DNA from: an uncultured Gammaproteobacteria bacterium
GTDB taxonomy: Bacteria > Patescibacteriota > Microgenomatia > UBA1406 > GWC2-37-13
Length of the DNA stretch: 43,501 bases
Direction: 5' to 3'
Assembly: GCA_964366485.1 (NCBI GenBank)
Contig: CAYITZ010000001.1
Coordinates: 1-43,501, forward strand
In this document: positions 13,255-39,342 of the stretch, piece after piece
Position numbering within the stretch: the stretch's first letter is position 1
Layout: every line of letters begins with the position of its first letter
Made by a program: the position numbers and the translations under genes
The notes under the pieces: model-generated
Databases searched by the model: none
Seen by the model: only the letters and a program-made list of their open reading frames with translations
What the model was told of the DNA's origin: nothing

Positions 13255-14793
13255 TTATTGGGTATTTTTTAACCAATTAATAATTTTATCCCCAATAAGC
13301 TTAGTATTTGGGTTATATTTTTTTCTGTGTTTAATAGCTTTTCTTTTTAATTCCAGAATATTTTTTGGAATAGACGCCTTAGTAATTCTTTTTATTCGTT
13401 TAAGTATTTCAAATTCATCTAACATATCATCATTAATTGATTTTGTGAGAGCTCTGCAAACATCCTTTGCAAACTTTGCCCAGTGGGCCGTTGAACAGAT
13501 AATTACGGGTGAGGAGATAGATTTTTGTTTTTGGTATCTCTCTACTATCGCTTGAGCAACAGAAGTATGGGGGTCCATCAGATATTTAGTTTCATCATAA
13601 AGTTTTTTTATATTTAATAAACAATCTTTATTTGAAACCCAATCCGCATAAAATTCTTTCTTTAAGATTCCTTTAGTAAGATTGTCAACCTCAAATTTTC
13701 TTTCGATTTTTAATTGGTTTATCCAGAAGGAAACTTTTTTTGGATCATTAGAGATTGTGTATAAAAGACGTTCAATATTACTGGCGATAAGAATATCCAT
13801 CGACGGTGAGGGTGTTTGCACCAATTTACGTTTTTTAATATTATATATTCCTGTTTGGAGAAATTCTGTTAGTACATTGTTTTCATTTGAAGCACAGATA
13901 AACTTTCGAATTGGTAATCCCATTTTCTTAGCATAATATGCTGCTAATGTATTCCCGAAATTACCCGTAGGGATAGCTATGTCTATCTGACTTCCCAATG
14001 TTATAACCTGCTTGTTTACTAAATCAATGTAGGCATTAATATGGTAAATAATTTGTGGAATAAGCCTTCCCCAGTTAATTGAGTTTGCTGAAGACAATAA
14101 AACTTGGTATTGATTAAAAAGTTTTTTATTAAATTTGCTGTCATTAAATATATCTTTTACTAATGATTGGACTGCATCAAAATCTCCATGGATAGCGCAA
14201 ACTTCAACATTTAACCCGTTTTGGGTAATCATTTGCAACTCTTGGAGTCGCGATACATGTCCATAGGGATAAAAAACTATTATGGAAACACCTTTTCTAT
14301 CTTTGAACCCCTCTAAAGCTGCTTTTCCTGTATCTCCAGATGTTGCTACTAAAATGAGATAATGTATAGGTTTTTCACCTTTGTTGACCAATTTTTTATT
14401 CTTCTCCTTTACTGCTTCTGAAAATAGCAATGGCATAATTTGTAAAGCCATATCTTTGAAAGCGGAGGTTGGACCATGCCATAACTCAAGAACATATTGA
14501 TTGTCTTTTAAGTGGATTGATGGGGCAATTAGAGTAGTATCGAAGTTTGTAGAATATGCTGTATTAACAATTTTCCTTATGGTATTCTCTGACAAGTCTG
14601 GTTCAAAAAGATTAAAAATAAAAATAGCTCGTTCTTGATATGACTTTTTTGATAGTAACCTTAATTGTCTAAGCGAAAATTTTGGTATTTTTTCCGGAAC
14701 AAAAAGACCTCCATCATTTGCAATACCTTTTAATATGACATCCAAAAAAGAACATAATTTTATATTGTTTCGTGTACTTTTGTATTGAATCAT
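13255..14793 (-). CDS. thrC: threonine synthase (long form)
   Basis: YKSTRNN...GIANDGGLFVP at the N-terminus; PLP-lysine motif TSAFKDMALQ; SGDTGKAA. ATGA overlap with the upstream kinase. Confidence 0.9.
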   Translation of the reverse strand: MIQYKSTRNNIKLCSFLDVILKGIANDGGLFVPEKIPKFSLRQLRLLSKKSYQERAIFIFNLFEPDLSENTIRKIVNTAYSTNFDTTLIAPSIHLKDNQYVLELWHGPTSAFKDMALQIMPLLFSEAVKEKNKKLVNKGEKPIHYLILVATSGDTGKAALEGFKDRKGVSIIVFYPYGHVSRLQELQMITQNGLNVEVCAIHGDFDAVQSLVKDIFNDSKFNKKLFNQYQVLLSSANSINWGRLIPQIIYHINAYIDLVNKQVITLGSQIDIAIPTGNFGNTLAAYYAKKMGLPIRKFICASNENNVLTEFLQTGIYNIKKRKLVQTPSPSMDILIASNIERLLYTISNDPKKVSFWINQLKIERKFEVDNLTKGILKKEFYADWVSNKDCLLNIKKLYDETKYLMDPHTSVAQAIVERYQKQKSISSPVIICSTAHWAKFAKDVCRALTKSINDDMLDEFEILKRIKRITKASIPKNILELKRKAIKHRKKYNPNTKLIGDKIINWLKNTQ

Positions 14794-15407
14794 TTTTTAA
14801 TTACCTCCATAAATTCATCTACACTAAAATTTTGACTATGCGAAAAAGTATAATCAAACCTAATATTTGTAATATTCTCATACCTTTTTGATCTAAAAGC
14901 AAGTAGTTTAGGATAACATCTACTTAGAGATTCAATATTTGATTCCCCATTTACCTTGTAAAAAGATTTACCCCAAATAACCGGCTTTGGATCTTTAAGA
15001 TACAACCTGTACATTTCTTGCTGAACAGTAACGGGAGTGTCCAAATAAATTATCTGAGTTAATTTCGATAATTTCTGTAAAATACTATTTTCCATATAAA
15101 TAACACTACCAGTCGTATCAATAACAATATTTTTTTGGTGTTTAATAGCTCTAAATATTTCATACGTTGCTTTGTTCTCAAAATATAAATATTTTTTACT
15201 TCTTTTCACATATTGGGGATCAAATGGTTGCCCCATCCATTTACCAACATCATGTAATCCAGAATAACCAAACTTTTTAAGTTCATGACTTAATTTCTGT
15301 TCAATTATGTCATCACAACAAAACCTCTTGAAGCCTTTTTCTTCTTGAAGTTTTTTCGACCAATAACTTTTACCACTACCAGACATTCCAATTATTGAAA
15401 GTTTCAT
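14790..15407 (-). CDS. P-loop kinase, shikimate-kinase-like fold, sitting in the homoserine kinase position of the thr operon
   Basis: Walker A IIGMSGSGKS. FCCDDIIEQ resembles the SK DxD substrate motif and VIDTTGSVIY resembles the SK GGG segment. 205 aa. ATGA overlaps on both sides (asd and thrC). Confidence 0.6.
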   Translation of the reverse strand: MKLSIIGMSGSGKSYWSKKLQEEKGFKRFCCDDIIEQKLSHELKKFGYSGLHDVGKWMGQPFDPQYVKRSKKYLYFENKATYEIFRAIKHQKNIVIDTTGSVIYMENSILQKLSKLTQIIYLDTPVTVQQEMYRLYLKDPKPVIWGKSFYKVNGESNIESLSRCYPKLLAFRSKRYENITNIRFDYTFSHSQNFSVDEFMEVIKK

Positions 15408-16477
15408 ATATACCCTTTTTTAACTAGTAACTCTGCCATGAGAATTGCTCCTCCAGCAGCACCTCTTATGGTATTGTGAGATAGAGCAATAAATTTCCAA
15501 TCAAAATATTTATCTTTCAGCAATCTCCCCATTGAGATTCCCATTCCATTTCCAAAGTCACGGTCCAATCTTGTTTGAGGGCGATTCTCCTCTTCAAAAT
15601 AATGAATAAACTCCTTTGGGGCAGAGGGTAAATTTAATTTATCTATTGGGTTAAACTTTTTAATCGCATCAAGAATTTGTTGTCTGGATGGTTTTATCTT
15701 GAATAATACTGATACACTTACCATATGACCGTTTGATGCAGGAACTCGTATGCATGTTGCAGAAATTTCTGGTTTTTTAGCAATATACAATTTATTGTTA
15801 GTAATTTTTGCCCATATTTTTAAGGGTTCTTTCTCAGATTTTTCTTCTTCTCCAACTATTAAAGGAATAACATTATCGACCATCTCTGGCCAACTACCAA
15901 ACGTTTTGCCTGCGCCAGAGATTGCCTGCATACTAACAATCTGAGCTTTTTGTGGTTTAAATTTTTTAAGAGCAGTAAGTATTGATACATAGGATTGTAT
16001 TGAACAGTTTGGTTTCACAGCAATTAAACCCTTTTTCCAACCTCTGTTTTTTCTTTGTATATCTATGAGTTTTACATGTTCAGAATTAATCTCCGGCATA
16101 ATCATTGGAATATCTTCTGTCCATCTATGCGCAGAGTTGTTTGATACAACAGGAACATCAAGTGCGGCATAAGCTTTCTCAACCCGCTTAATATCCTCTT
16201 TATCCATATCTAACGCAGAGAAAACAAAATTAACCTGTTTTGCTATACTTTTTATATTACTTTCTGCGGATTTAACTTTTAATTTCTTTACTTGTTCTGG
16301 AATAGGTGTATTCATTTTCCATCGGCCTTTAACAGCCTCTTCGTATTTTTTCCCAGATGATTGAGGAGACGCTGCAATAACTACTACCTCAAACCATGGA
16401 TGATTTTCTAGCAGTTGGATAAACCGCTGTCCCACCATACCCGTTGCTCCCAATATTCCCACTTTTAGCTTATTCAT
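15404..16477 (-). CDS. asd: aspartate-semialdehyde dehydrogenase
   Basis: VGILGATGMVGQRF (NADP site), active-site KPNCSIQS, SMQAISGAG and SHNTIRGAAG. Confidence 0.9.
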   Translation of the reverse strand: MNKLKVGILGATGMVGQRFIQLLENHPWFEVVVIAASPQSSGKKYEEAVKGRWKMNTPIPEQVKKLKVKSAESNIKSIAKQVNFVFSALDMDKEDIKRVEKAYAALDVPVVSNNSAHRWTEDIPMIMPEINSEHVKLIDIQRKNRGWKKGLIAVKPNCSIQSYVSILTALKKFKPQKAQIVSMQAISGAGKTFGSWPEMVDNVIPLIVGEEEKSEKEPLKIWAKITNNKLYIAKKPEISATCIRVPASNGHMVSVSVLFKIKPSRQQILDAIKKFNPIDKLNLPSAPKEFIHYFEEENRPQTRLDRDFGNGMGISMGRLLKDKYFDWKFIALSHNTIRGAAGGAILMAELLVKKGYI

Positions 16478-17469
16478 ATATTTCCTCCATTAACTATTTT
16501 TGCAACTGATAGAAGATCAGCGAACACACCTGCTGCAGTAACAAAAATTCCTGCCCCAGGTCCTTTTACTACTAATGGGTTTTTAAAATATCGTTCGGTC
16601 TTGAGGGCAATCAAATTGTCAGGTCCTTTAAGATTTCCAATATCACTTGATTTATCAACTTCTTGAAGTCCGACACTACACTTTTGAAAACTTATTTTTG
16701 CTACAAAGCGTAGAACTTTATCTTTCTTTTTTGCTTCTTTTACCTTTTGTTTGTAAAAATTATTTATTTGGTATAGGTCGCGCAAAAAGTTTTCATCGCT
16801 TAGTTTCTGCATTTTTTTTGGATATAAACCAACAAGTTGTATATCTTTAATTTCAATTTTCCGACCTATTAAGCGGGCCAAAATTAGAGCTTTGCGAGCT
16901 ACGTCAACACCTGATAAATCGTCTCTCGGATCGGGTTCGGTAAACCCTTTTTCCTTTGCAGAAAGTACTGCTTCAGAGAACAGTCTTCCATTGTCTAATT
17001 GAGAAAAAATAAATCCAAGTGTTCCACTAAAGCAACCTTGTATTTCTATAACTTTATCTCCAGTTGTTATAAAATTTTTTAATGTTTGGACGATCGGTAA
17101 ACCTGCGCCTACTACGCACTCATAAAATAACCGTTGTTCACCCAATTTATGTAAAAAATCAAAATCTTTTTGTTTGCCACTAAGTGGTTTTTTGTTTGCT
17201 AAAATAGCAAATCCTCCACGTTTTAGAGCAAACGTAATATATGAGACTGTTTCATCGGATGCGGTTGTATCTATAAGCACAAATGGTAAAGCAATTTTCT
17301 GTATTGCGTCATTAATTTCTTGTGCAGAATTTTCTGAATTAAATTTTCCAACATAATTAAGTGAAATACCTAAGCTTTTTCTAAGTTTCTTTTTCTGTTC
17401 TGCGAGTTGCCTTATAACTTCCTTTCCTACATTTCCAGCTCCAAGATGTAAAATGTTCAATTTTTTCAT
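16474..17469 (-). CDS. hom: homoserine dehydrogenase, no C-terminal ACT domain
   Basis: LNILHLGAGNVGKEV (NAD(P) site), FYECVVGAGLPIV, GTLGFIF and EPDPRDDLSGVDVARK. I prefer ATG 17469, which forms an ATGA overlap with the ask stop; the track start is 17487. Confidence 0.85.
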   Translation of the reverse strand: MKKLNILHLGAGNVGKEVIRQLAEQKKKLRKSLGISLNYVGKFNSENSAQEINDAIQKIALPFVLIDTTASDETVSYITFALKRGGFAILANKKPLSGKQKDFDFLHKLGEQRLFYECVVGAGLPIVQTLKNFITTGDKVIEIQGCFSGTLGFIFSQLDNGRLFSEAVLSAKEKGFTEPDPRDDLSGVDVARKALILARLIGRKIEIKDIQLVGLYPKKMQKLSDENFLRDLYQINNFYKQKVKEAKKKDKVLRFVAKISFQKCSVGLQEVDKSSDIGNLKGPDNLIALKTERYFKNPLVVKGPGAGIFVTAAGVFADLLSVAKIVNGGNI

Positions 17470-18371
17470 TGTGATACTCCTTTCCATATTTTTGTACCAA
17501 TTAAATCTGGTTTAAAGATATTTTTTACCCACACAATAATTCCTTTTGATTTGACAGGTTTCATTGCTTCAGAATGCAATACCTTTGCCCCTCTTTCTGC
17601 AAGAGCAAGTGCTTCAGAATATAAAAGTTCTGAGTAAAACTTTGCTTGATCATCTTTCTTAGGATCGGTACTAAATACACCATCAACCTCTTTCCATAAA
17701 ATAACTTCTTTTGCGTCAAGAACATTAGATAGAATAGTTGCGCTGTAGTCAGACCCACCTCTACCTAGAGTTACAATTTTTCCTTCTTTTGTGGCAGCAT
17801 AGAATCCAGTTACAACAGGTACAATATGTTTTAGGAGTAGAGGTAGTAAACTTTTCTTTGCTTTTATTTTGGTATCTGCAAGAAGAGCCCTAGCGTTACC
17901 AAACATATTGTTTGCCACAATAACACTAGAAGCGTCTATAGGTTTTGCGATGACATCAATTTTGTTTAATGCAGCTGACAATAAGTGACTACATAATTTT
18001 TCACCAAATGAAATTACGTAGTCGTAATCAGATAAGCTGTAGTCTTTACATAGGAAAAGGTAAATACTTAAATCCCCAAAAAGATGATAAAGAGATTTTT
18101 TAATATGAACATAATCATTTTTCCTTAATCCTAAATCTCTTAATGCAGAATTATGAATACCATGTAGTATGCGTATTTCTTCAAAAGCGGTCGAAAAATC
18201 TCTAGATTTGCATTTCTGAAAAAGACTAATCAGTTTATCTGTTACACCATTCATAGCCGACACAACAATAACTACTTCTGACTTATTGCTAAATTTTTTA
18301 ATAATTTCAGCAACATGAAGCATTCGTTTACCCGTTCCAAGCGATGATCCTCCAAATTTCATAATTTTCAT
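17466..18371 (-). CDS. ask: aspartate kinase, catalytic AAK domain only (301 aa, no ACT domains)
   Basis: MKFGGSSLGT, VVVSAMNGVTD, TLGRGGSDYSAT and VDGVFSTDP. The protein ends right after the kinase domain. Confidence 0.85.
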   Translation of the reverse strand: MKIMKFGGSSLGTGKRMLHVAEIIKKFSNKSEVVIVVSAMNGVTDKLISLFQKCKSRDFSTAFEEIRILHGIHNSALRDLGLRKNDYVHIKKSLYHLFGDLSIYLFLCKDYSLSDYDYVISFGEKLCSHLLSAALNKIDVIAKPIDASSVIVANNMFGNARALLADTKIKAKKSLLPLLLKHIVPVVTGFYAATKEGKIVTLGRGGSDYSATILSNVLDAKEVILWKEVDGVFSTDPKKDDQAKFYSELLYSEALALAERGAKVLHSEAMKPVKSKGIIVWVKNIFKPDLIGTKIWKGVSQ

Positions 18372-18394
18372 AGCATTATCTTTTTTTAATTATT

Positions 18395-18417
18395 AAAAAA
18401 CCTCCCTTATGGGAGGC
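18395..18417 (-). terminator. attenuator-2 terminator (regions 3':4')
   Basis: Minus strand reads GCCUCCC-AUAA-GGGAGGU followed by UUUUUU. It ends 23 nt upstream of the ask ATG. Confidence 0.75.
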
Positions 18418-18448
18418 TTGGTTTTTGATAAATAATATATTATTTACG

Positions 18449-18517
18449 CTACAAACCTCCCGAATTGAATCGGGTAGTTGTAGTAGTTCTCAACAGATTT
18501 TTTATTTGATTATCCAT
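18449..18517 (-). CDS. thr leader peptide 2: MDNQIKNLLRTTTTTRFNSGGL
   Basis: Hand translation of the minus strand: ATG GAT AAT CAA ATA AAA AAT CTG TTG AGA ACT ACT ACA ACT ACC CGA TTC AAT TCG GGA GGT TTG TAG. Five consecutive Thr codons run into the CCCGA/UCGGG hairpin (18459-18474). Confidence 0.75.
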   Translation of the reverse strand: MDNQIKNLLRTTTTTRFNSGGL

Positions 18518-18519
18518 AT

Positions 18520-18547
18520 AAAAACAAAAGCCCTCCTTTCGGAGGGT
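18520..18547 (-). terminator. attenuator-1 terminator (regions 3:4)
   Basis: Minus strand reads (A)CCCUCC-GAAA-GGAGGG followed by CUUUUGUUUUU. Confidence 0.7.
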
Positions 18548-18557
18548 AAATTTAAAC

Positions 18558-18588
18558 AAAAAAACACCCTCCTTAAGTAGGAGTGGTG
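18558..18588 (-). terminator. hairpin 1:2 plus U7 (lon terminator and/or attenuator pause hairpin)
   Basis: Minus strand reads CACCACUCCU-ACUUA-AGGAGGGUG then UUUUUUU. The 5' arm consists of the Thr/Pro codons of leader peptide 1. Confidence 0.7.
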
Positions 18589-18623
18589 GTTGAGAATTGA
18601 AAACAAATATTGTTTTTACTCAT
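18573..18623 (-). CDS. thr leader peptide 1: MSKNNICFQFSTTTPT
   Basis: Hand translation: ATG AGT AAA AAC AAT ATT TGT TTT CAA TTC TCA ACC ACC ACT CCT ACT TAA. Four of the last five sense codons are Thr. The stop lies in the loop of hairpin 1:2. Confidence 0.65.
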   Translation of the reverse strand: MSKNNICFQFSTTTPT

Positions 18624-18628
18624 ATAGT

Positions 18629-18661
18629 CTATAGTTTATAACAGACTTTCTTAAATGTCAA
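18629..18661 (-). promoter_or_regulatory. sigma70-type promoter for the thr leader/operon, overlapping the lon stop codon
   Basis: Minus strand: TTGACA (18661-18656), 15-nt spacer, extended -10 TGtTATAAA (18643-18635). Alternatively TAAACT at 17-nt spacing. The leader-1 ATG lies 11 nt after the -10. Confidence 0.5.
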
Positions 18662-21062
18662 ACTTATTTCGGTTCTTAATCATCTTTGGGGAATGAGTTA
18701 GGGCAACCGGTAAGACTTCATCAAGATTCTCAACATACACAAACTTGAGATCTTTCAAGATATAGTCGGGAATATCTTCAAGATCTTTTTTGTTGTCTTT
18801 GGGAAGAATGATGGTCTTTATACCTGCCCTATGCGCGGCGATGACTTTTTCCTTAACTCCCCCTATCTCAAGTGCTCGTCCACGAAGGGTAATTTCTCCG
18901 GTCATAGCAACATCGCGCCTAAAAGGTGTCTTGGTGAGGGCAGATAACATGGCGGTTGCAATTGCCAGTCCAGCAGAGGGACCGTCCTTGGGAACAGCAC
19001 CTTCCGGTACATGGACGTGGATATCATAATTGTGAAAGAAATCTTTTTTGAGATCGAACTTTTCCCAACGGGAACGGATATAAGAAAGGGCGGCTTGGCA
19101 GGACTCCTTCATGACGTCGCCCAAATGACCAGTTAGTGTTAAAGCGCCTTTACCCGGCATGATAGCAACCTCGATAAAGAGGATGTCTCCCCCCGCCTGA
19201 GTCCACGCAAGTCCGGTCGATATGCCAATCGTGTTTTTTCCTTCAATTATTTGACTGGAGTATTTGTATGGGCCTAAATACTTTGAAATATCTGGGGTAG
19301 CGACTACTTTTTTTGTAATTTTCTTCTCAACAATTTCACGGGCAATCTTACGGAATACCCCGGCAACCTGGCGCTCAAGTTCGCGTACTCCAGCCTCACG
19401 CGTATAGCGCCGGATGATCATCTTCATAGCCGCATCATGCACCTGTACTTCGGCAGTTGACAGACTATGGGCATCGATCTGTTTTTTGACAAGATAGTCT
19501 TTTACGATGTGGAATTTTTCATCCTCCGTATACCCAGGGAAATTGATGATTTCAAGCCGGTCAAGCAAAGCCTCGGGAATAGTATCTAACATATTGGCGG
19601 TTGTAATAAAAAAAACGTCGGAGAGGTCAAAGGGAACTTCCAGATAGTGGTCGGAAAACGAATGATTTTGCTCTGGGTCTAAAGCCTCAAGAAGGGCCGC
19701 GGATGCGTCTCCCCGGTAATCACGACCGATTTTATCTATTTCATCAAGCATGAATAAAGGATTTTTGGTGCCTGCCTGTTTGATGCCCTGGATGATACGT
19801 CCCGGAAGTGCGCCCACATAAGTTCGTCTATGACCGCGGATTTCAGCCTCATCCCGTATCCCGCCGAGTGACATCTTCACAAACTTCCGGTCAAGCGCTC
19901 GCGCTATGGAACGACCAAGAGATGTTTTTCCCACTCCCGGAGGGCCTACAAAACAGATAATCGTGGGTTGATATTCTTTTTTCTTTTTTTCTCCTGTTCC
20001 GTCCTTCTGTGCAATCTCCGCTTTTTGACGGCGCAGTTCAATGACAGCTAGATATTCAAGTATACGCTCTTTGATCTTTTTTAAACCAAAATGATCTTCG
20101 TTCAATATCTTCTCCGCTTGTTTGATATCAATGTTGCTGGTCGAAATGGTTGACCAGGGTAGATCAACCAACCAATCAAGATAGGTTTTTACATATGAAG
20201 CTTCCGGATTGAATTGTGACATTTGACTGAGGCGTTTGAGCTCTTTTAACGCTTTTTCCTCCACTTGCTTTGGCATTTTTGATGCGGCTATTTTATCACG
20301 GTACTCTTTCAGATCCTTATCTTCTCCTCCCCCCAGCTCTTCCTCAATTGTCTTCATCTTTTCTTTGAGAAAAGTTTCTTTCATTCCCTTTTCAAATTTA
20401 CGTTGAGTTTTTGCTGATATATTTTGTTCAATTTCAAGAATTTTAACTTCCTTGTCTATATGATCCACTTCCATCACTAGTCTTTTTTTTAATTCATTTT
20501 CCTCCAGGAGAATCTGCTTTTCTTTTTCTTTGATATCGAGAATCATGGCAATATGATACGAAAAATCTTGTGGAGTCCCCACGTTCAGAATATTCATGAG
20601 AAAAACAAAATCAACCGCTTTTCCTAAATTAATTGCTTTTTTTACCTGGAGCGAGATGTGTTTTACCATTGCCTGAAGTTCATTATCATTGTCAAGGATT
20701 TCTTCGATCTTTTCGACTTTGCCTTCAAAGTAAGGGGTATCTTTGGTGTATTCGGTGATCTTAACCTTTTCAACCCCCTTAACCAATGCATTTATTTCAC
20801 CTTTTTCACCAACCACAGTCTTTTCAATGGTTGCCACAACTCCTATTTCATAAAGGTCTTCCTTTCTCGGATCTTCAACCGATGAGTTTTTTTGCATCAC
20901 TAGAACAATTCTTTTATCACTCTTTAACGCCTCATTTATGGTCGTAATGCTTTTGAGCCTCCCAAAAACGAGAACGTTTTCCGTCTTGGGAAACACGATA
21001 CCGTCACGAACTGCGATGATGGGAAGTGTGACTTGATTAGGTGAACCCATAAGAAATGCCAT
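18651..21062 (-). CDS. lon: ATP-dependent Lon protease
   Basis: Walker A GPPGVGKTSLG, Walker B LFMLDEIDK, protease PKDGPSAG with the K dyad. The start is set at ATG 21062 because the track's TTG 21104 is the -35 hexamer of the lon promoter. Confidence 0.95.
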   Translation of the reverse strand: MAFLMGSPNQVTLPIIAVRDGIVFPKTENVLVFGRLKSITTINEALKSDKRIVLVMQKNSSVEDPRKEDLYEIGVVATIEKTVVGEKGEINALVKGVEKVKITEYTKDTPYFEGKVEKIEEILDNDNELQAMVKHISLQVKKAINLGKAVDFVFLMNILNVGTPQDFSYHIAMILDIKEKEKQILLEENELKKRLVMEVDHIDKEVKILEIEQNISAKTQRKFEKGMKETFLKEKMKTIEEELGGGEDKDLKEYRDKIAASKMPKQVEEKALKELKRLSQMSQFNPEASYVKTYLDWLVDLPWSTISTSNIDIKQAEKILNEDHFGLKKIKERILEYLAVIELRRQKAEIAQKDGTGEKKKKEYQPTIICFVGPPGVGKTSLGRSIARALDRKFVKMSLGGIRDEAEIRGHRRTYVGALPGRIIQGIKQAGTKNPLFMLDEIDKIGRDYRGDASAALLEALDPEQNHSFSDHYLEVPFDLSDVFFITTANMLDTIPEALLDRLEIINFPGYTEDEKFHIVKDYLVKKQIDAHSLSTAEVQVHDAAMKMIIRRYTREAGVRELERQVAGVFRKIAREIVEKKITKKVVATPDISKYLGPYKYSSQIIEGKNTIGISTGLAWTQAGGDILFIEVAIMPGKGALTLTGHLGDVMKESCQAALSYIRSRWEKFDLKKDFFHNYDIHVHVPEGAVPKDGPSAGLAIATAMLSALTKTPFRRDVAMTGEITLRGRALEIGGVKEKVIAAHRAGIKTIILPKDNKKDLEDIPDYILKDLKFVYVENLDEVLPVALTHSPKMIKNRNKFDI

Positions 21063-28790: not shown

Positions 28791-29318
28791 TTATCGAGGC
28801 TTCCTTCTCCTTATACCAATTCTTATTGTCCCTCTATTCATATTAGAACCTGTCTCCCTGATAACTTTATCAACCAAAATTGCACTTACATTGGGAGGAA
28901 TAAGTTTTGGCCGGATTACGCTGAGGTCTAAACAAAGTTTTGTACCCATTGGACAAATATCTCCTTCACGCACAATTTGCTTTACTGCAACTTTTGATAA
29001 ATTCACAGCTAAGGCTTCTTCTTGTGGGGTACTTTCCTCTTTCGCCATGTGAGTTAAAACATCTTCTATATCACCTGCCAATACCTGAACCTCCCTAAGT
29101 TTATTAAATCCAATTGCTATTGAGCCAATTATTTGTAATATGCTTAAGTTTGTGTCCAAGTCGAGCACTCTTTCCATTAATGTTAGTCCATCTGGGTATG
29201 GCCCGTCAAGTTTCATTGATCTAAGCAAATCTTCAACGGATATTTGAGGCATACTACCCTCTCTTACCCGTGCAAGATCACTACTTAATAGATTGAGTGG
29301 TGAAAGCCGATCAGACAT
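28791..29318 (-). CDS. hypothetical protein (175 aa), basic C-terminal tail
   Basis: Long ORF in the operon orientation. I recognise no motif. Two TATAAT hexamers lie 0 and 10 nt upstream of the ATG. Confidence 0.55.
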   Translation of the reverse strand: MSDRLSPLNLLSSDLARVREGSMPQISVEDLLRSMKLDGPYPDGLTLMERVLDLDTNLSILQIIGSIAIGFNKLREVQVLAGDIEDVLTHMAKEESTPQEEALAVNLSKVAVKQIVREGDICPMGTKLCLDLSVIRPKLIPPNVSAILVDKVIRETGSNMNRGTIRIGIRRRKPR

Positions 29319-37266: not shown

Positions 37267-37299
37267 TTAATAGGCTCAGATGTGAAGATTTATTAAAAA

Positions 37300-37490
37300 G
37301 AGCGTGTGGTCCCGCCTTTGGCGAGGATTACGAGGAGAGGGGTCTCGACGTAAAGTCGGACAATCGGAAACAATTTTTCAAAATTGTATATCTACGGAAA
37401 CCCTCAAGGCACAACTGTTGTCTTGAATATGTTTTTTAAACCCCCGCAGTAATGTGGGGATCAAAGAAAACATAACACAGTCCTTCATCC
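37300..37490 (+). ncRNA. probable glmS ribozyme (GlcN6P-dependent self-cleaving riboswitch)
   Basis: Lies in the 5' UTR of glmS. A-GCG at 37301-37304 (cleavage-site context). P1-like hairpin UCCCGCC-UUU-GGCGAGGA followed by UUACGAGGAG (consensus GACGAGG). GAGGG...CCCUC pairing encloses CGAC-GUAAA-GUCGG and ACGGAAACCCUCAAGG (compare B. subtilis CGGCGGAUGCCUCCCGG). 3' domain CCCCGCA-GUAA-UGUGGGGAUCAAAGAAAACAU (compare GGGGGUGA...GAACAAAGAGAAAUCACAU). Confidence 0.55.
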
Positions 37491-37572: not shown

Positions 37573-39342
37573 ATGTGTGGTATTTTTGCTGTAGTTAATG
37601 ATAAACACAATTCGAGTGCTCAAACGGTTCTTGAAGGATTAAAAAAGCTTGAGTATCGTGGTTATGATTCATGGGGCATCGCGATTAAGCCAATGGGCGT
37701 AAATAAACTTCAAGTTGAAAAGCATGTGGGAAAAATCGGGCAAGCGACTACCTCCTTGCCGAAAGGCTCTATTGCTATTGGCCATACCCGCTGGGCTACT
37801 CATGGCGGTGTAACTGATGCAAACGCCCATCCTCACTTGGACTGCTCGGGACAGATTGCAGTTCTCCATAATGGCATTGTGGAAAATTATCAAGAACTAA
37901 AAGCAAAGCTTTTGGCCAAAGGTCATGTTTTTATTTCCGAAACTGACACGGAAGTGATTGCCCATCTTATCGAAGAAAAGCAAAAAACCGCAAAGATAGA
38001 AACCGCGGTATTTGAAACCTTTAAAGAACTTGCCGGTTCAAATGCCATAGCAGTGCTTGACAGTAAGACCGAATCGGTCATTGCCTGCCGAAATGGTTCT
38101 CCACTCGTAGTCGGAATGGGAAAAGAGGATTACTATCTTGCCTCCGATGTGCCTGCTTTTTTGAAATTTACCAATGCTGTTCACTTTTTGTTAGACGGCG
38201 AGGCGGTAATATTAACCAAAATTGGTGTATCCCTGCATGATGTTGAAACACATGCAAAAAAAAATCTGGTCATTCAACGTCTTGACTGGAAAGTTGAGGA
38301 TGCGGAAAAAGGAGGATATCCCCACTTCCTGCTGAAGGAAATTATGGAGCAGAAGAAAACAATTCCAAAAACATCCCAGATAAACATTGAAGAACTGCAG
38401 AAAATTGCTGAAAGAATAAAAATACACAAAAAAGTTGTCATGACTGCGTGTGGAACCGCGTCCTACTGCGCCCTTGCCGCAAAATATTTCTTTGCAAAGT
38501 CAGGCATCCAAGCTCAAAGCTATCCTGCATACGAATTTTTACCTTTTGCAAAGTTCTGTGATAAAGATACCGTGTTTATCGCTATATCTCAAAGCGGGGA
38601 AACTGCAGATACTTTAATTGCGGCTCGAGCAGCAAAAAAAGTAGGAGCATACATAGTTGCTGTTATAAATGCCCGCGGGTCAACTCTTGAACGATTAGCT
38701 GACAGTGTCCTTCTCGTCGGAGCTGGACCGGAGATTGCAGTCGTATCAACTAAAGCATTCACTTCACAACTTGCAACACTCTATTTACTTGCTCATGAGG
38801 TTGGCGGAAACATTTTACTAGCGAAGAAAAATCTGCAACACCTGGGTCAAGTTCTTGAAGATTGGTTAAATCAAGAGTTATTAGATAAAGTAATCACCCT
38901 TGCCAAAGACATTTTGAGCCATGAAGATATGTACTTAATTGGCAAGCATTTAAATTATCCCAGCACTCTCGAATTTGCGCTCAAAATCAAAGAGGCAAGT
39001 TATATCCATGCTGAACCATTCGCCGCGGGTGAATTAAAACATGGAGTTATTTCTCTTATTCAAAAAGGGACTATTTGTTTTGTACTTGCCAGCAATGATG
39101 AGGTGAAGAACGAAGTTTTGTCAAGTGCGGCAGAGTTGAAAGCTCGAGGTGCATACATCATTGGAATTGCCCCGTTTCAATCTTCCGAATTTGATACCAC
39201 CATACAAACACCGGATGTGGGAGATTTGACGCTTTTCCCCAATGTGATTGTGGGCCAGTTATTGGGATACTTCTTGGGGATTGGTCGGGGAACCGATCCT
39301 GACAAACCAAGAAACCTCGCCAAAAGCGTAACGGTTAAGTAG
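37573..39342 (+). CDS. glmS: glutamine--fructose-6-phosphate aminotransferase
   Basis: MCGIFAV Ntn-Cys start, HTRWATHG, two SIS domains (ISQSGETADT), C-terminal KPRNLAKSVTV. Confidence 0.95.
   Translation: MCGIFAVVNDKHNSSAQTVLEGLKKLEYRGYDSWGIAIKPMGVNKLQVEKHVGKIGQATTSLPKGSIAIGHTRWATHGGVTDANAHPHLDCSGQIAVLHNGIVENYQELKAKLLAKGHVFISETDTEVIAHLIEEKQKTAKIETAVFETFKELAGSNAIAVLDSKTESVIACRNGSPLVVGMGKEDYYLASDVPAFLKFTNAVHFLLDGEAVILTKIGVSLHDVETHAKKNLVIQRLDWKVEDAEKGGYPHFLLKEIMEQKKTIPKTSQINIEELQKIAERIKIHKKVVMTACGTASYCALAAKYFFAKSGIQAQSYPAYEFLPFAKFCDKDTVFIAISQSGETADTLIAARAAKKVGAYIVAVINARGSTLERLADSVLLVGAGPEIAVVSTKAFTSQLATLYLLAHEVGGNILLAKKNLQHLGQVLEDWLNQELLDKVITLAKDILSHEDMYLIGKHLNYPSTLEFALKIKEASYIHAEPFAAGELKHGVISLIQKGTICFVLASNDEVKNEVLSSAAELKARGAYIIGIAPFQSSEFDTTIQTPDVGDLTLFPNVIVGQLLGYFLGIGRGTDPDKPRNLAKSVTVK

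Follow-up and report, generated by a model that had tools for sequence, protein, structure and literature searches.

Candidate tandem leader-peptide attenuators in front of the threonine operon of a Patescibacteria genome

Why should two small open reading frames (sORFs) with runs of threonine codons lie directly in front of a threonine biosynthesis operon? The question is raised by the lon–ask spacer of contig CAYITZ010000001.1, of which positions 1 to 43,501 were analyzed (this whole stretch of 43,501 nucleotides [nt] is referred to as the window). The spacer comprises 279 nt of the minus strand, between the lon stop codon TAA (18653-18651) and the ask ATG (18371). A previous reading of the letters alone (the original prediction) had placed a duplicated, ribosome-mediated attenuator here. 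Our analysis makes it likely that the spacer encodes two serial leader-peptide transcription attenuators, which would tie expression of the operon to a shortage of charged tRNA-Thr. The predicted mechanism is classical; judged from its sequence, the RNA scaffold is a family that is uncurated so far, present here in a tandem variant, probably leaderless, and interchangeable with the T-box. The nearest named relatives of the window Ask (301 amino acids [aa]) are found in “Candidatus Gottesmanbacteria” and in genomes labeled “Patescibacteria group”, and therefore the window DNA is that of a bacterium of the candidate phyla radiation (CPR). The “SD-less small-genome lineage” of the original prediction is thereby identified as Patescibacteria/CPR; in the whole window, a Shine-Dalgarno (SD)-like motif lies upstream of only 6 of the 37 large ORFs.

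Anatomy of the two units

Each element of the original prediction was found in its place when positions 18300-18760 were read on the minus strand, on which all features of the leader and the operon lie. Within the 5′ leader, two short ORFs (sORF1 and sORF2) precede the genes of an operon for amino-acid biosynthesis (ask-hom-asd-thrB′-thrC). Each carries a run of the cognate codon; the encoded run is TTT(P)T for sORF1 and TTTTT for sORF2. Intrinsic terminators are located between the sORFs and the first gene (18547-18520 and 18417-18395). In both units, a 2:3 antiterminator and a 1:2 hairpin that overlaps the regulatory codons or the sORF end are mutually exclusive. The stop codons are placed as in leader-peptide attenuators, with UAG right after region 2 in nearly all copies of unit 2 that we collected.

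In unit 1, sORF1 (18573..18623) encodes MSKNNICFQFSTTTPT, with the Thr codons ACC ACC ACU at 18590-18582 and ACU at 18578-18576. Region 1 (CACCACUCCU, 18588-18579) pairs with region 2 (AGGAGGGUG, 18573-18565) to form the 1:2 hairpin T1a (18558..18588), which has the UAA stop codon of sORF1 in its loop, is followed by U7 (18564-18558), and by its sequence looks like a terminator or a pause site. The terminator T1b (18520..18547) is composed of region 3 (ACCCUCC, 18547-18541), a GAAA loop, and region 4 (GGAGGG, 18536-18531), followed by CUUUUGUUUUU. Region 2 (GGAGGGU) is able to pair with region 3 instead and to act as the antiterminator partner. The energies of the three structures are -12.8 (1:2), -13.1 (2:3), and -12.2 (3:4) kcal/mol.

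In unit 2, sORF2 (18449..18517) encodes MDNQIKNLLRTTTTTRFNSGGL, with five Thr codons in a row (18487-18473) and a UAG stop codon (18451-18449). The 1:2 hairpin (18449..18483) has an inner stem CCCGA (18474-18470)/UCGGG (18463-18459); in a possible outer extension, CUACAACU of the Thr codons would pair with GG.UUGUAG. The antiterminator 2:3 (18411..18461) pairs GGGAGGUUUG (18461-18452) with CAAGCCUCCC (18420-18411) and encloses a small AU hairpin. The terminator 3:4 (18395..18417) reads GCCUCCC-AUAA-GGGAGGU plus U6 and ends 23 nt before the ask ATG. The corresponding energies are -15.2, -19.2, and -13.0 kcal/mol, and nascent RNA that extends to region 3 has 2:3 as its minimum-energy structure. 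In a strain variant (L092, positions 1-126), the U run is shortened from U6 to U5, with a C-to-A change just before the CAAG of region 3 and an A-to-C change before ask.

These structures exceed what is expected by chance. The whole leader folds at -72.6 kcal/mol, compared with -45.6 ± 4.8 kcal/mol for shuffled sequences (z = -5.6), and none of 200 shuffles folds as well. Three terminator-like hairpins are present on the minus strand (18588-18565 plus U7, 18547-18531 plus CUUUUGUUUUU, and 18417-18400 plus U6). In the 43.5 kb of the window, the arrangement CCTCC-N3-9-GGAGG is present at two places, and both belong to the lon–ask leader. A run of at least three Thr codons is present in only 3 of the 614 ATG-initiated sORFs of 10-40 codons in the whole window, and two of these three are sORF1 and sORF2, which bears out the low chance that had been assigned to two such sORFs in front of a thr operon.

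The leader does not belong to a curated family. It scores 13 bits (E = 9.9) against the Rfam Thr_leader model RF00506, whose gathering score is 55 and which is not reached anywhere in the window; the T-box model RF00230 has no match in the window leader; and no meaningful Rfam match to the leader came up under either gathering or E-value cut-offs. The window leader does belong to a scaffold that we defined in CPR genomes by its GGGAGG and UYGUAG motifs (alignment A2, model R1). In this scaffold, an sORF ends with UYGUAG just past GGGAGG and is followed by CRAA-CCUCCC-loop-GGGAGG-U6-7. Positions 18394-18490 score 71.6 bits (E = 1.2e-11) with model R1, the window itself being part of the training set of the model. 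As a negative control, about 0.5 Mb of DNA surrounding 80 ask genes from outside CPR was compared with the unit 2 covariance model; it contained no match at E < 0.01, and neither did the rest of the window.

Conservation and codon content in related loci

The ask operons of relatives were fetched by exact look-up of Ask proteins and not by motif, which yielded 8 distinct operons with 50-74% Ask identity. The samples ERR3858129 and SRR32696696 contain a protein identical to the window Ask. (A first scan, using patterns from an Ask alignment, was abandoned: the patterns WKEVDGVF and GRGGSDYSA are common to all aspartokinases, and only non-CPR loci were among the matches listed; these became the negative control mentioned above.) A leader of the unit 2 type is present in 7 of the 8 distinct orthologous operons and consists of a Thr-rich sORF of 18-22 codons, a 1:2 hairpin, GGGAGG…UYGUAG, and a terminator. 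The last Thr codon enters a hairpin that has its 3′ arm within GGGAGG; UYGUAG, a spacer, and CRAA-CCUCCC-loop-GGGAGG-U6-7 follow in this order, and ask begins about 20-30 nt further on. Threonine accounts for 43 of the 164 codons of these sORFs. The encoded peptides are MIKKHSLLTTTTTRLIREAS (L081, with its ATG overlapping the stop codon of the upstream gene); MKTLLPILTATTTTRFIREAS, MIYYQKTTTTTTTTTTPSGECL, and MRKLALTIITLTTPFGECL (L082, L088, and L089, all directly 3′ of thrS); MKNMNNFEYTTTTTTQLIWERL and MKHIHILNRITTTTPIIWEYL (L084 and L086, both with a T-box 5′ of the leader); and MNKTYIFSITITTTPFIWESL and MKLRNKQINIMVTTTGSP (L093 and L094/95, the latter from Gottesmanbacteria GCA_001780955.1, both with their own promoter-like site). 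As in unit 1 of the window, the single leader of L094 has its stop codon in the hairpin loop. Some of the relatives' leaders mix Thr with Ile codons (TIITLTT and ITITTT), a mixture that is also found in Escherichia coli thrL. Because the upstream neighbors differ (thrS, glyA, a gene of the L-PSP family, or a divergent alaS-like gene), the leader evidently accompanies ask rather than lon. Related genomes have kept the sORF, the Thr codons, and the stems, as would be expected of a ribosome-mediated attenuator.

The eighth operon, L087, has a Thr T-box in place of the leader peptide, and in L084 and L086 a T-box and a leader peptide are placed in series, in this order. Thus, each of the 8 ask operons has in front of it a type of sensor for tRNA-Thr charging, be it a T-box, a leader peptide, or the two in series. 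The T-boxes before ask (L084, 2709-2897; L086, 1572-1764; L087, 2819-2965) are Thr specific, with the specifier ACU or ACC followed by A. They are divergent, scoring 42-47 bits with RF00230 (E = 1.6e-7 to 2.3e-6), below its gathering score of 93. In some relatives the Thr T-box takes the position of unit 1. A further divergent T-box was seen ahead of glyA in L084 (1181-1346).

A metagenome search that combined the terminator with UYGUAG-NNN-GGAG, and that made no use of Thr codons, returned 29 loci, about 20 of them distinct. The pattern requires 3 nt between GGGAG and UYGUAG; the window has 2 and is therefore not matched by it. Together with the protein-derived loci, 30 distinct unit 2 sequences were analyzed, leaving out L113, in which the sORF is cut by the locus end. 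All 30 have an ATG-initiated sORF of 18-38 codons that ends at the conserved UAG or within 5 codons of it.

The codon content of these sORFs matches the downstream gene. Thr-rich sORFs precede ask in L096, L101, L104, L107, and L110 (in L101 and L104 via a structured spacer) and precede thrS in L109. Peptides of the TKKTTKT type are found before a full-length aspartokinase of 495 aa in L103, L106, and L114, and this sequence pattern suggests a multivalent attenuation by Lys and Thr. L116 (LTKKAAKST) and L120 (LTKKISKST) contain Lys, are poor in Thr, and precede ask-like genes. In L099, L105, L108, and L118, CC-TTTT peptides are located before genes for a 250-aa protein and a hydrolase of the creatininase/MftE family. 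Pfam, NCBIfam, and PDB sequence searches with the downstream proteins of 321, 250, 179, and 376 aa returned nothing useful.

Two side observations concern the same set of loci. In L113 (26-80), GGGAG..UUGUAG and a terminator, with the peptide tail ..FYFPNSNGENL before the stop codon, are located upstream of the chorismate mutase/prephenate dehydratase gene pheA. In L101/L121 and L104/L119, the leader terminator is separated from ask by 120-200 nt of GC-richer sequence that folds strongly (-72 and -64 kcal/mol); these spacers have no Rfam match at E < 0.01 and may represent another structured element.

A constant scaffold whose codon run follows the regulated gene fits ribosome-mediated sensing and is hard to explain otherwise. 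Could the RNA nevertheless be sensed without translation, by a protein, a tRNA (as in a T-box), or a metabolite, with the sORFs as by-products of sequence constraint? The high sequence conservation of the GGGAGG/CCUCCC scaffold, the T-boxes that occupy the same position in relatives, and the lack of an SD motif ahead of the sORFs would be compatible with such sensing. However, it would not account for an ATG frame of 18-38 codons that is kept in 30 of 30 copies and ends near a common stop codon, nor for the enrichment of this frame in codons that fit the downstream pathway while the noncodon parts stay constant. Moreover, no Rfam family, T-box included, matches the leader; its hairpins are simple, with no conserved core besides them that resembles a ligand pocket; and initiation independent of SD motifs looks normal in this genome (see above). 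We therefore regard sensing without translation as very improbable.

The pairings were examined in the 30-sequence alignment A2. RNAalifold on the MAFFT alignment recovered the terminator alone, because the 1:2 hairpin is out of register in the alignment; per-sequence duplex tests and pair counts were used instead. The 2:3 antiterminator is paired in 90.5% of the cells, compared with 31-57% when the partners are slid. One 2:3 pair is U-A in 14 and C-G in 13 sequences, with 2 exceptions, and the region 3 side of this extension lies outside the search pattern. Cognate 2:3 duplexes are more stable than noncognate ones (-16.8 versus -15.0 kcal/mol), the cognate mean being reached by 1 of 20,000 permutations; for 1:2 the values are -13.5 versus -11.2 kcal/mol and 0 of 20,000 permutations. 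The terminator 3:4 is kept in the 30 sequences, with a top pair that alternates between CG and UA. Comparison of ask-upstream spacers among relatives, the check named with the original prediction, thus came out in its favor: unit 2 is present in 7 of 8 independent regions, and both 1:2 and 2:3 co-vary. A co-variation between the choice of ACG or ACA as Thr codon and UCG or UUG beside the stop codon was seen in one sequence only and is unsupported across the set.

Unit 1 is less widespread. The composite of unit 1 and unit 2 occurs in five other distinct loci: L098, L099, L105, L108 (= L111 and L123), and L118. L098 has the lon-promoter-unit 1-unit 2 layout of the window, with the unit 1 peptide MKKSNISFRFSTTTPF; its unit 1 stem shows a compensatory change from CUCCU/AGGAG to CUCCG/CGGAG, and its sORF2 has a start codon 5′ of the unit 1 terminator, so that the reading frame spans this terminator. 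The other four loci form a Cys/Thr group with unit 1 peptides M..NCTCTTS, ..CTCTTHL, and ..CTCTTPA. In this group the stop codon (UAA, UAG, or UGA) is always located at the 1:2 loop, a U-rich tract follows region 2, and the terminator, ACCC(C)UCC-GAAA-GGAGGG-U, is nearly the same as T1b. Their codons read CTCTT in unit 1 and then CCTTTT in unit 2, and both units change together with the operon. The 250-aa protein encoded after these leaders is conserved and has no family match.

The original prediction had called the attenuator duplicated. Two units are indeed placed in tandem, but they are not the product of a simple recent duplication. The unit 2 covariance model scores unit 1 elements weakly (18.6-24.6 bits, E = 0.04-0.6), and the score of the window copy (18.6 bits, E = 0.57) is not significant evidence of homology. 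Units 1 and 2 thus represent distinct subtypes.

The same insignificant score would suit an arrangement in which unit 2 is the sole regulator, T1a and T1b are the terminators of lon, and sORF1 is fortuitous or decaying, and so would the absence of unit 1 from L081 and most relatives and its position directly after lon in the window and L098. However, the only good promoter is located 5′ of unit 1, and just 3 nt separate T1b from sORF2; ask transcripts must therefore pass T1a and T1b. Furthermore, the four loci of the Cys/Thr group have unit 1 without lon upstream. Their copies keep the sORF, the stop codon in the loop (UAA, UAG, or UGA), and the 2:3 complementarity, and the unit 1 codons change along with those of unit 2, CTCTT taking the place of TTT. 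Regulation by unit 2 alone is thus rather unlikely, and we favor two serial attenuators.

The Cys/Thr group also bears on a third possibility, namely, that the sORFs encode functional peptides, such as precursors of modified peptides, and that the hairpins are ordinary intergenic terminators. The Cys/Thr peptides of the L099 group are located upstream of a creatininase/MftE-family hydrolase, and MftE is a peptide-processing enzyme. Yet the peptides are poorly conserved outside the codon run, whereas the RNA pairings co-vary; their C-terminal residues are set by the RNA motif GGGAGG..UYGUAG; a terminator stands between the sORF and the following genes; and the Thr-run versions precede thr genes and thrS. 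Functional peptides are, in our estimate, even less probable than sensing without translation, and the sORFs are better understood as leader peptides.

Proposed mechanism and points against it

A promoter-like site (18633..18661), with TTGACA at 18661-18656, a gap of 17 nt, and TAAACT at 18638-18633, has a promoter-scan score of 10/12; its TTGACA falls within the last lon codons, and TGtTATAAA is another possible reading of the -10 element. The sORF1 ATG follows 9 nt after the end of the -10 hexamer, and L098 keeps the layout TTGACA..TATAAACT..ATG. Because a -10-like hexamer ends 6-11 nt ahead of the sORF ATG in the window, L098, the Cys/Thr group, and most stand-alone leaders, the sequence suggests that the sORF mRNA is leaderless or nearly so. 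SD motifs are rare before the ORFs of the window, and their absence at the sORFs is therefore no argument against sORF translation. Several other start codons of the window are located a few nt past a -10-like TAnnnT box (e.g., those of the ORFs ending at 29318, 36353, and 41977), a pattern suggesting that leaderless mRNAs are frequent in this genome.

Transcription would start from TTGACA/TAAACT in the lon end, probably 1-3 nt ahead of the sORF1 AUG, so that sORF1 translation would begin with little or no untranslated sequence before it. In both units, the Thr codons lie in or next to region 1, which pairs with the GGAGG-containing region 2; region 2 can alternatively pair with the CCUCC-containing region 3, the 5′ arm of the intrinsic terminator (3:4 plus the U tract). 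When charged tRNA-Thr is plentiful, the ribosome would reach the stop codon and cover region 2 (the UAA of unit 1 lies in the 1:2 loop, and the UAG of unit 2 directly past region 2), or it would depart and let 1:2 re-form; by either route 3:4 would form and transcription would stop. When it is scarce, a ribosome stalled on the Thr codons would keep region 1 open and region 2 free, and 2:3 would pair before region 4 is transcribed, so that RNA polymerase reads through. Having to pass both units would lower basal expression and sharpen the response. The 1:2 hairpin of unit 1 with its U7 may also pause or terminate RNA polymerase by default and thereby couple it to the first ribosome.

Constrained folding of the nascent RNA agrees with this scheme. 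With a 28-nt ribosome footprint centered on the Thr codons, 2:3 stays the minimum-energy structure in both units, and with the footprint on the stop codon it is abolished in both. The stop-codon geometry had been read correctly: a ribosome on the stop codon masks region 2, and one on the Thr codons leaves it free.

Several points weigh against this interpretation. (i) When the full leader is folded at equilibrium, masking of region 1 does not dislodge the terminator. The comparison of fold energies is accordingly divided, with 2:3 prevailing in nascent RNA that has a ribosome on the Thr codons and the terminator prevailing at equilibrium in the full leader. Because equilibrium always favors the terminator, the choice would have to be kinetic and cotranscriptional; the trpL switch is likewise kinetic. 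(ii) Unit 1 is missing from L081, the locus with the closest ask ortholog (74% identity), and is therefore dispensable. (iii) The tandem of L098 (1-1365) precedes not ask but a gene for a 321-aa protein that has no Pfam, NCBIfam, or PDB match. (iv) sORF2 has no SD-like motif at the usual distance, and it starts 3 nt past the U tract of T1b. (v) The core terminator stem of the metagenome set is fixed by the search pattern. (vi) In 83% of the cells, pairing of CUACRA with UYGUAG could lengthen the 1:2 stem outward into the Thr codons, but this possible extension shows no covariation. (vii) CPR bacteria are not known to couple transcription and translation.

Related systems, implications, and the regulated operon

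Like E. coli thrL and trpL (RF00506 and RF00513), the window leader has a run of end-product codons, alternating 1:2, 2:3, and 3:4 structures, a terminator before the first gene, and a stop codon set so that a terminating ribosome covers region 2. Unlike them, it has the GGGAGG/CCUCCC scaffold, with no sequence or structure homology to theirs, it lacks an SD motif, its first sORF is probably leaderless, it comprises two serial units, and it belongs to the phylum Patescibacteria.

The two ORFs of the mgtCBR leader of Salmonella sense different signals. The leader of this virulence and Mg2+-transport operon is described as having tandem attenuators, in which two short ORFs (mgtM and mgtP) each govern alternative stem-loops and thereby decide whether transcription extends into the coding region (PMC3641672). 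In contrast, the two units of the window precede a biosynthetic operon, their codon runs specify one amino acid, and an intrinsic terminator is present in each. In Deinococcus deserti, in which leaderless mRNAs are common, leaderless leader peptides are predicted before amino-acid biosynthesis and tRNA-synthetase genes, with the start codon at or at most 1 nt from the mapped transcription start (PMC4007540). The start in the window is instead derived from the gap of 6-11 nt between -10 element and ATG, and the RNA scaffold is unrelated.

The T-box (RF00230) shares with the window leader both the signal, tRNA charging, and the output, a choice between terminator and antiterminator. Between phyla, T-boxes and leader peptides are known to replace each other (PMC2965389); in the clade of the window, the sensors are swapped, and even stacked, among close relatives. 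We found no description of such stacking of a T-box and a leader peptide, no search having been aimed at it. We know of no leader in Actinobacteria or Firmicutes that reuses one scaffold with varied codon runs across operons. The trp and ilvB leader-peptide attenuators of Actinobacteria (PMC1262725) and the hisS and ilv leader peptides of Firmicutes (PMC2965389) show that the mechanism recurs across phyla via unrelated sequences; none of them is from CPR bacteria.

As far as we are aware, few studies have dealt with gene regulation in CPR/Patescibacteria. In a recent perspective on Patescibacteria, riboswitches are named solely as prospective tools. The original prediction had supposed that leader-peptide attenuation was undescribed in such a lineage, and our incomplete coverage of the literature likewise turned up no paper joining leader peptides or attenuation with CPR or Patescibacteria; its novelty there is probable but not certain.

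The ACT domains of other aspartokinases are the carriers of feedback inhibition. The window Ask has no ACT domains, and its close CPR homologs are all about 300 aa long and consist of the kinase domain alone. Allosteric feedback on the first step of the pathway is thus probably missing, and because the Ask of this clade lacks ACT domains, RNA-level control may be the main feedback on its thr pathway. A wider proposition, to which we give an even chance, is that CPR bacteria of the Microgenomates type share one modular, SD-less, often leaderless attenuator scaffold that is reprogrammed by its codon run (Thr, Lys plus Thr, Cys plus Thr, possibly Phe/Tyr), is arranged in tandem, and among close relatives either gives way to Thr T-boxes or is combined with them; in the thr operon, it would replace the allosteric control that was lost with the ACT domains of Ask.

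An attenuator at this locus would imply that tRNA-Thr charging is sensed and that translation is coupled to transcription in these bacteria. If the wider proposition is true, both processes would operate in organisms usually deemed poor in regulators, and a link to amino-acid supply would follow for the proteins of 250 and 321 aa and for the partner from the creatininase family. The scaffold offers a concrete, testable cis-regulatory system in the CPR radiation and, as a putative new RNA family, is a candidate for Rfam and for the annotation of CPR genomes. The swapping and stacking of leader peptides and T-boxes on one operon may serve as a natural experiment on how sensors are chosen or combined, and the codon run, given its agreement with the gene that follows, could help to guess the functions of unknown genes behind such leaders.

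The regulated operon (13255..18371) keeps its gene order in relatives. It begins with ask (18371-17466; 301 aa) and continues with hom (17487-16474), a separate gene that overlaps ask by 22 nt, asd (16477-15404) of the archaeal type, a gene for a shikimate-kinase-like putative homoserine kinase (15407-14790; 205 aa) in the slot expected for thrB, and thrC (14793-13255). The protein in the thrB slot has a weak match to the noncanonical homoserine kinase model “hom_kin_desulfo” (44 bits; cut-off, 197), and it keeps the same operon position in relatives. Elsewhere in the window, a glmS ribozyme (RF00234, 52 bits) is located at 37290-37484 on the plus strand, directly 5′ of the GlmS gene (37573-39342), which encodes GATase and SIS domains.

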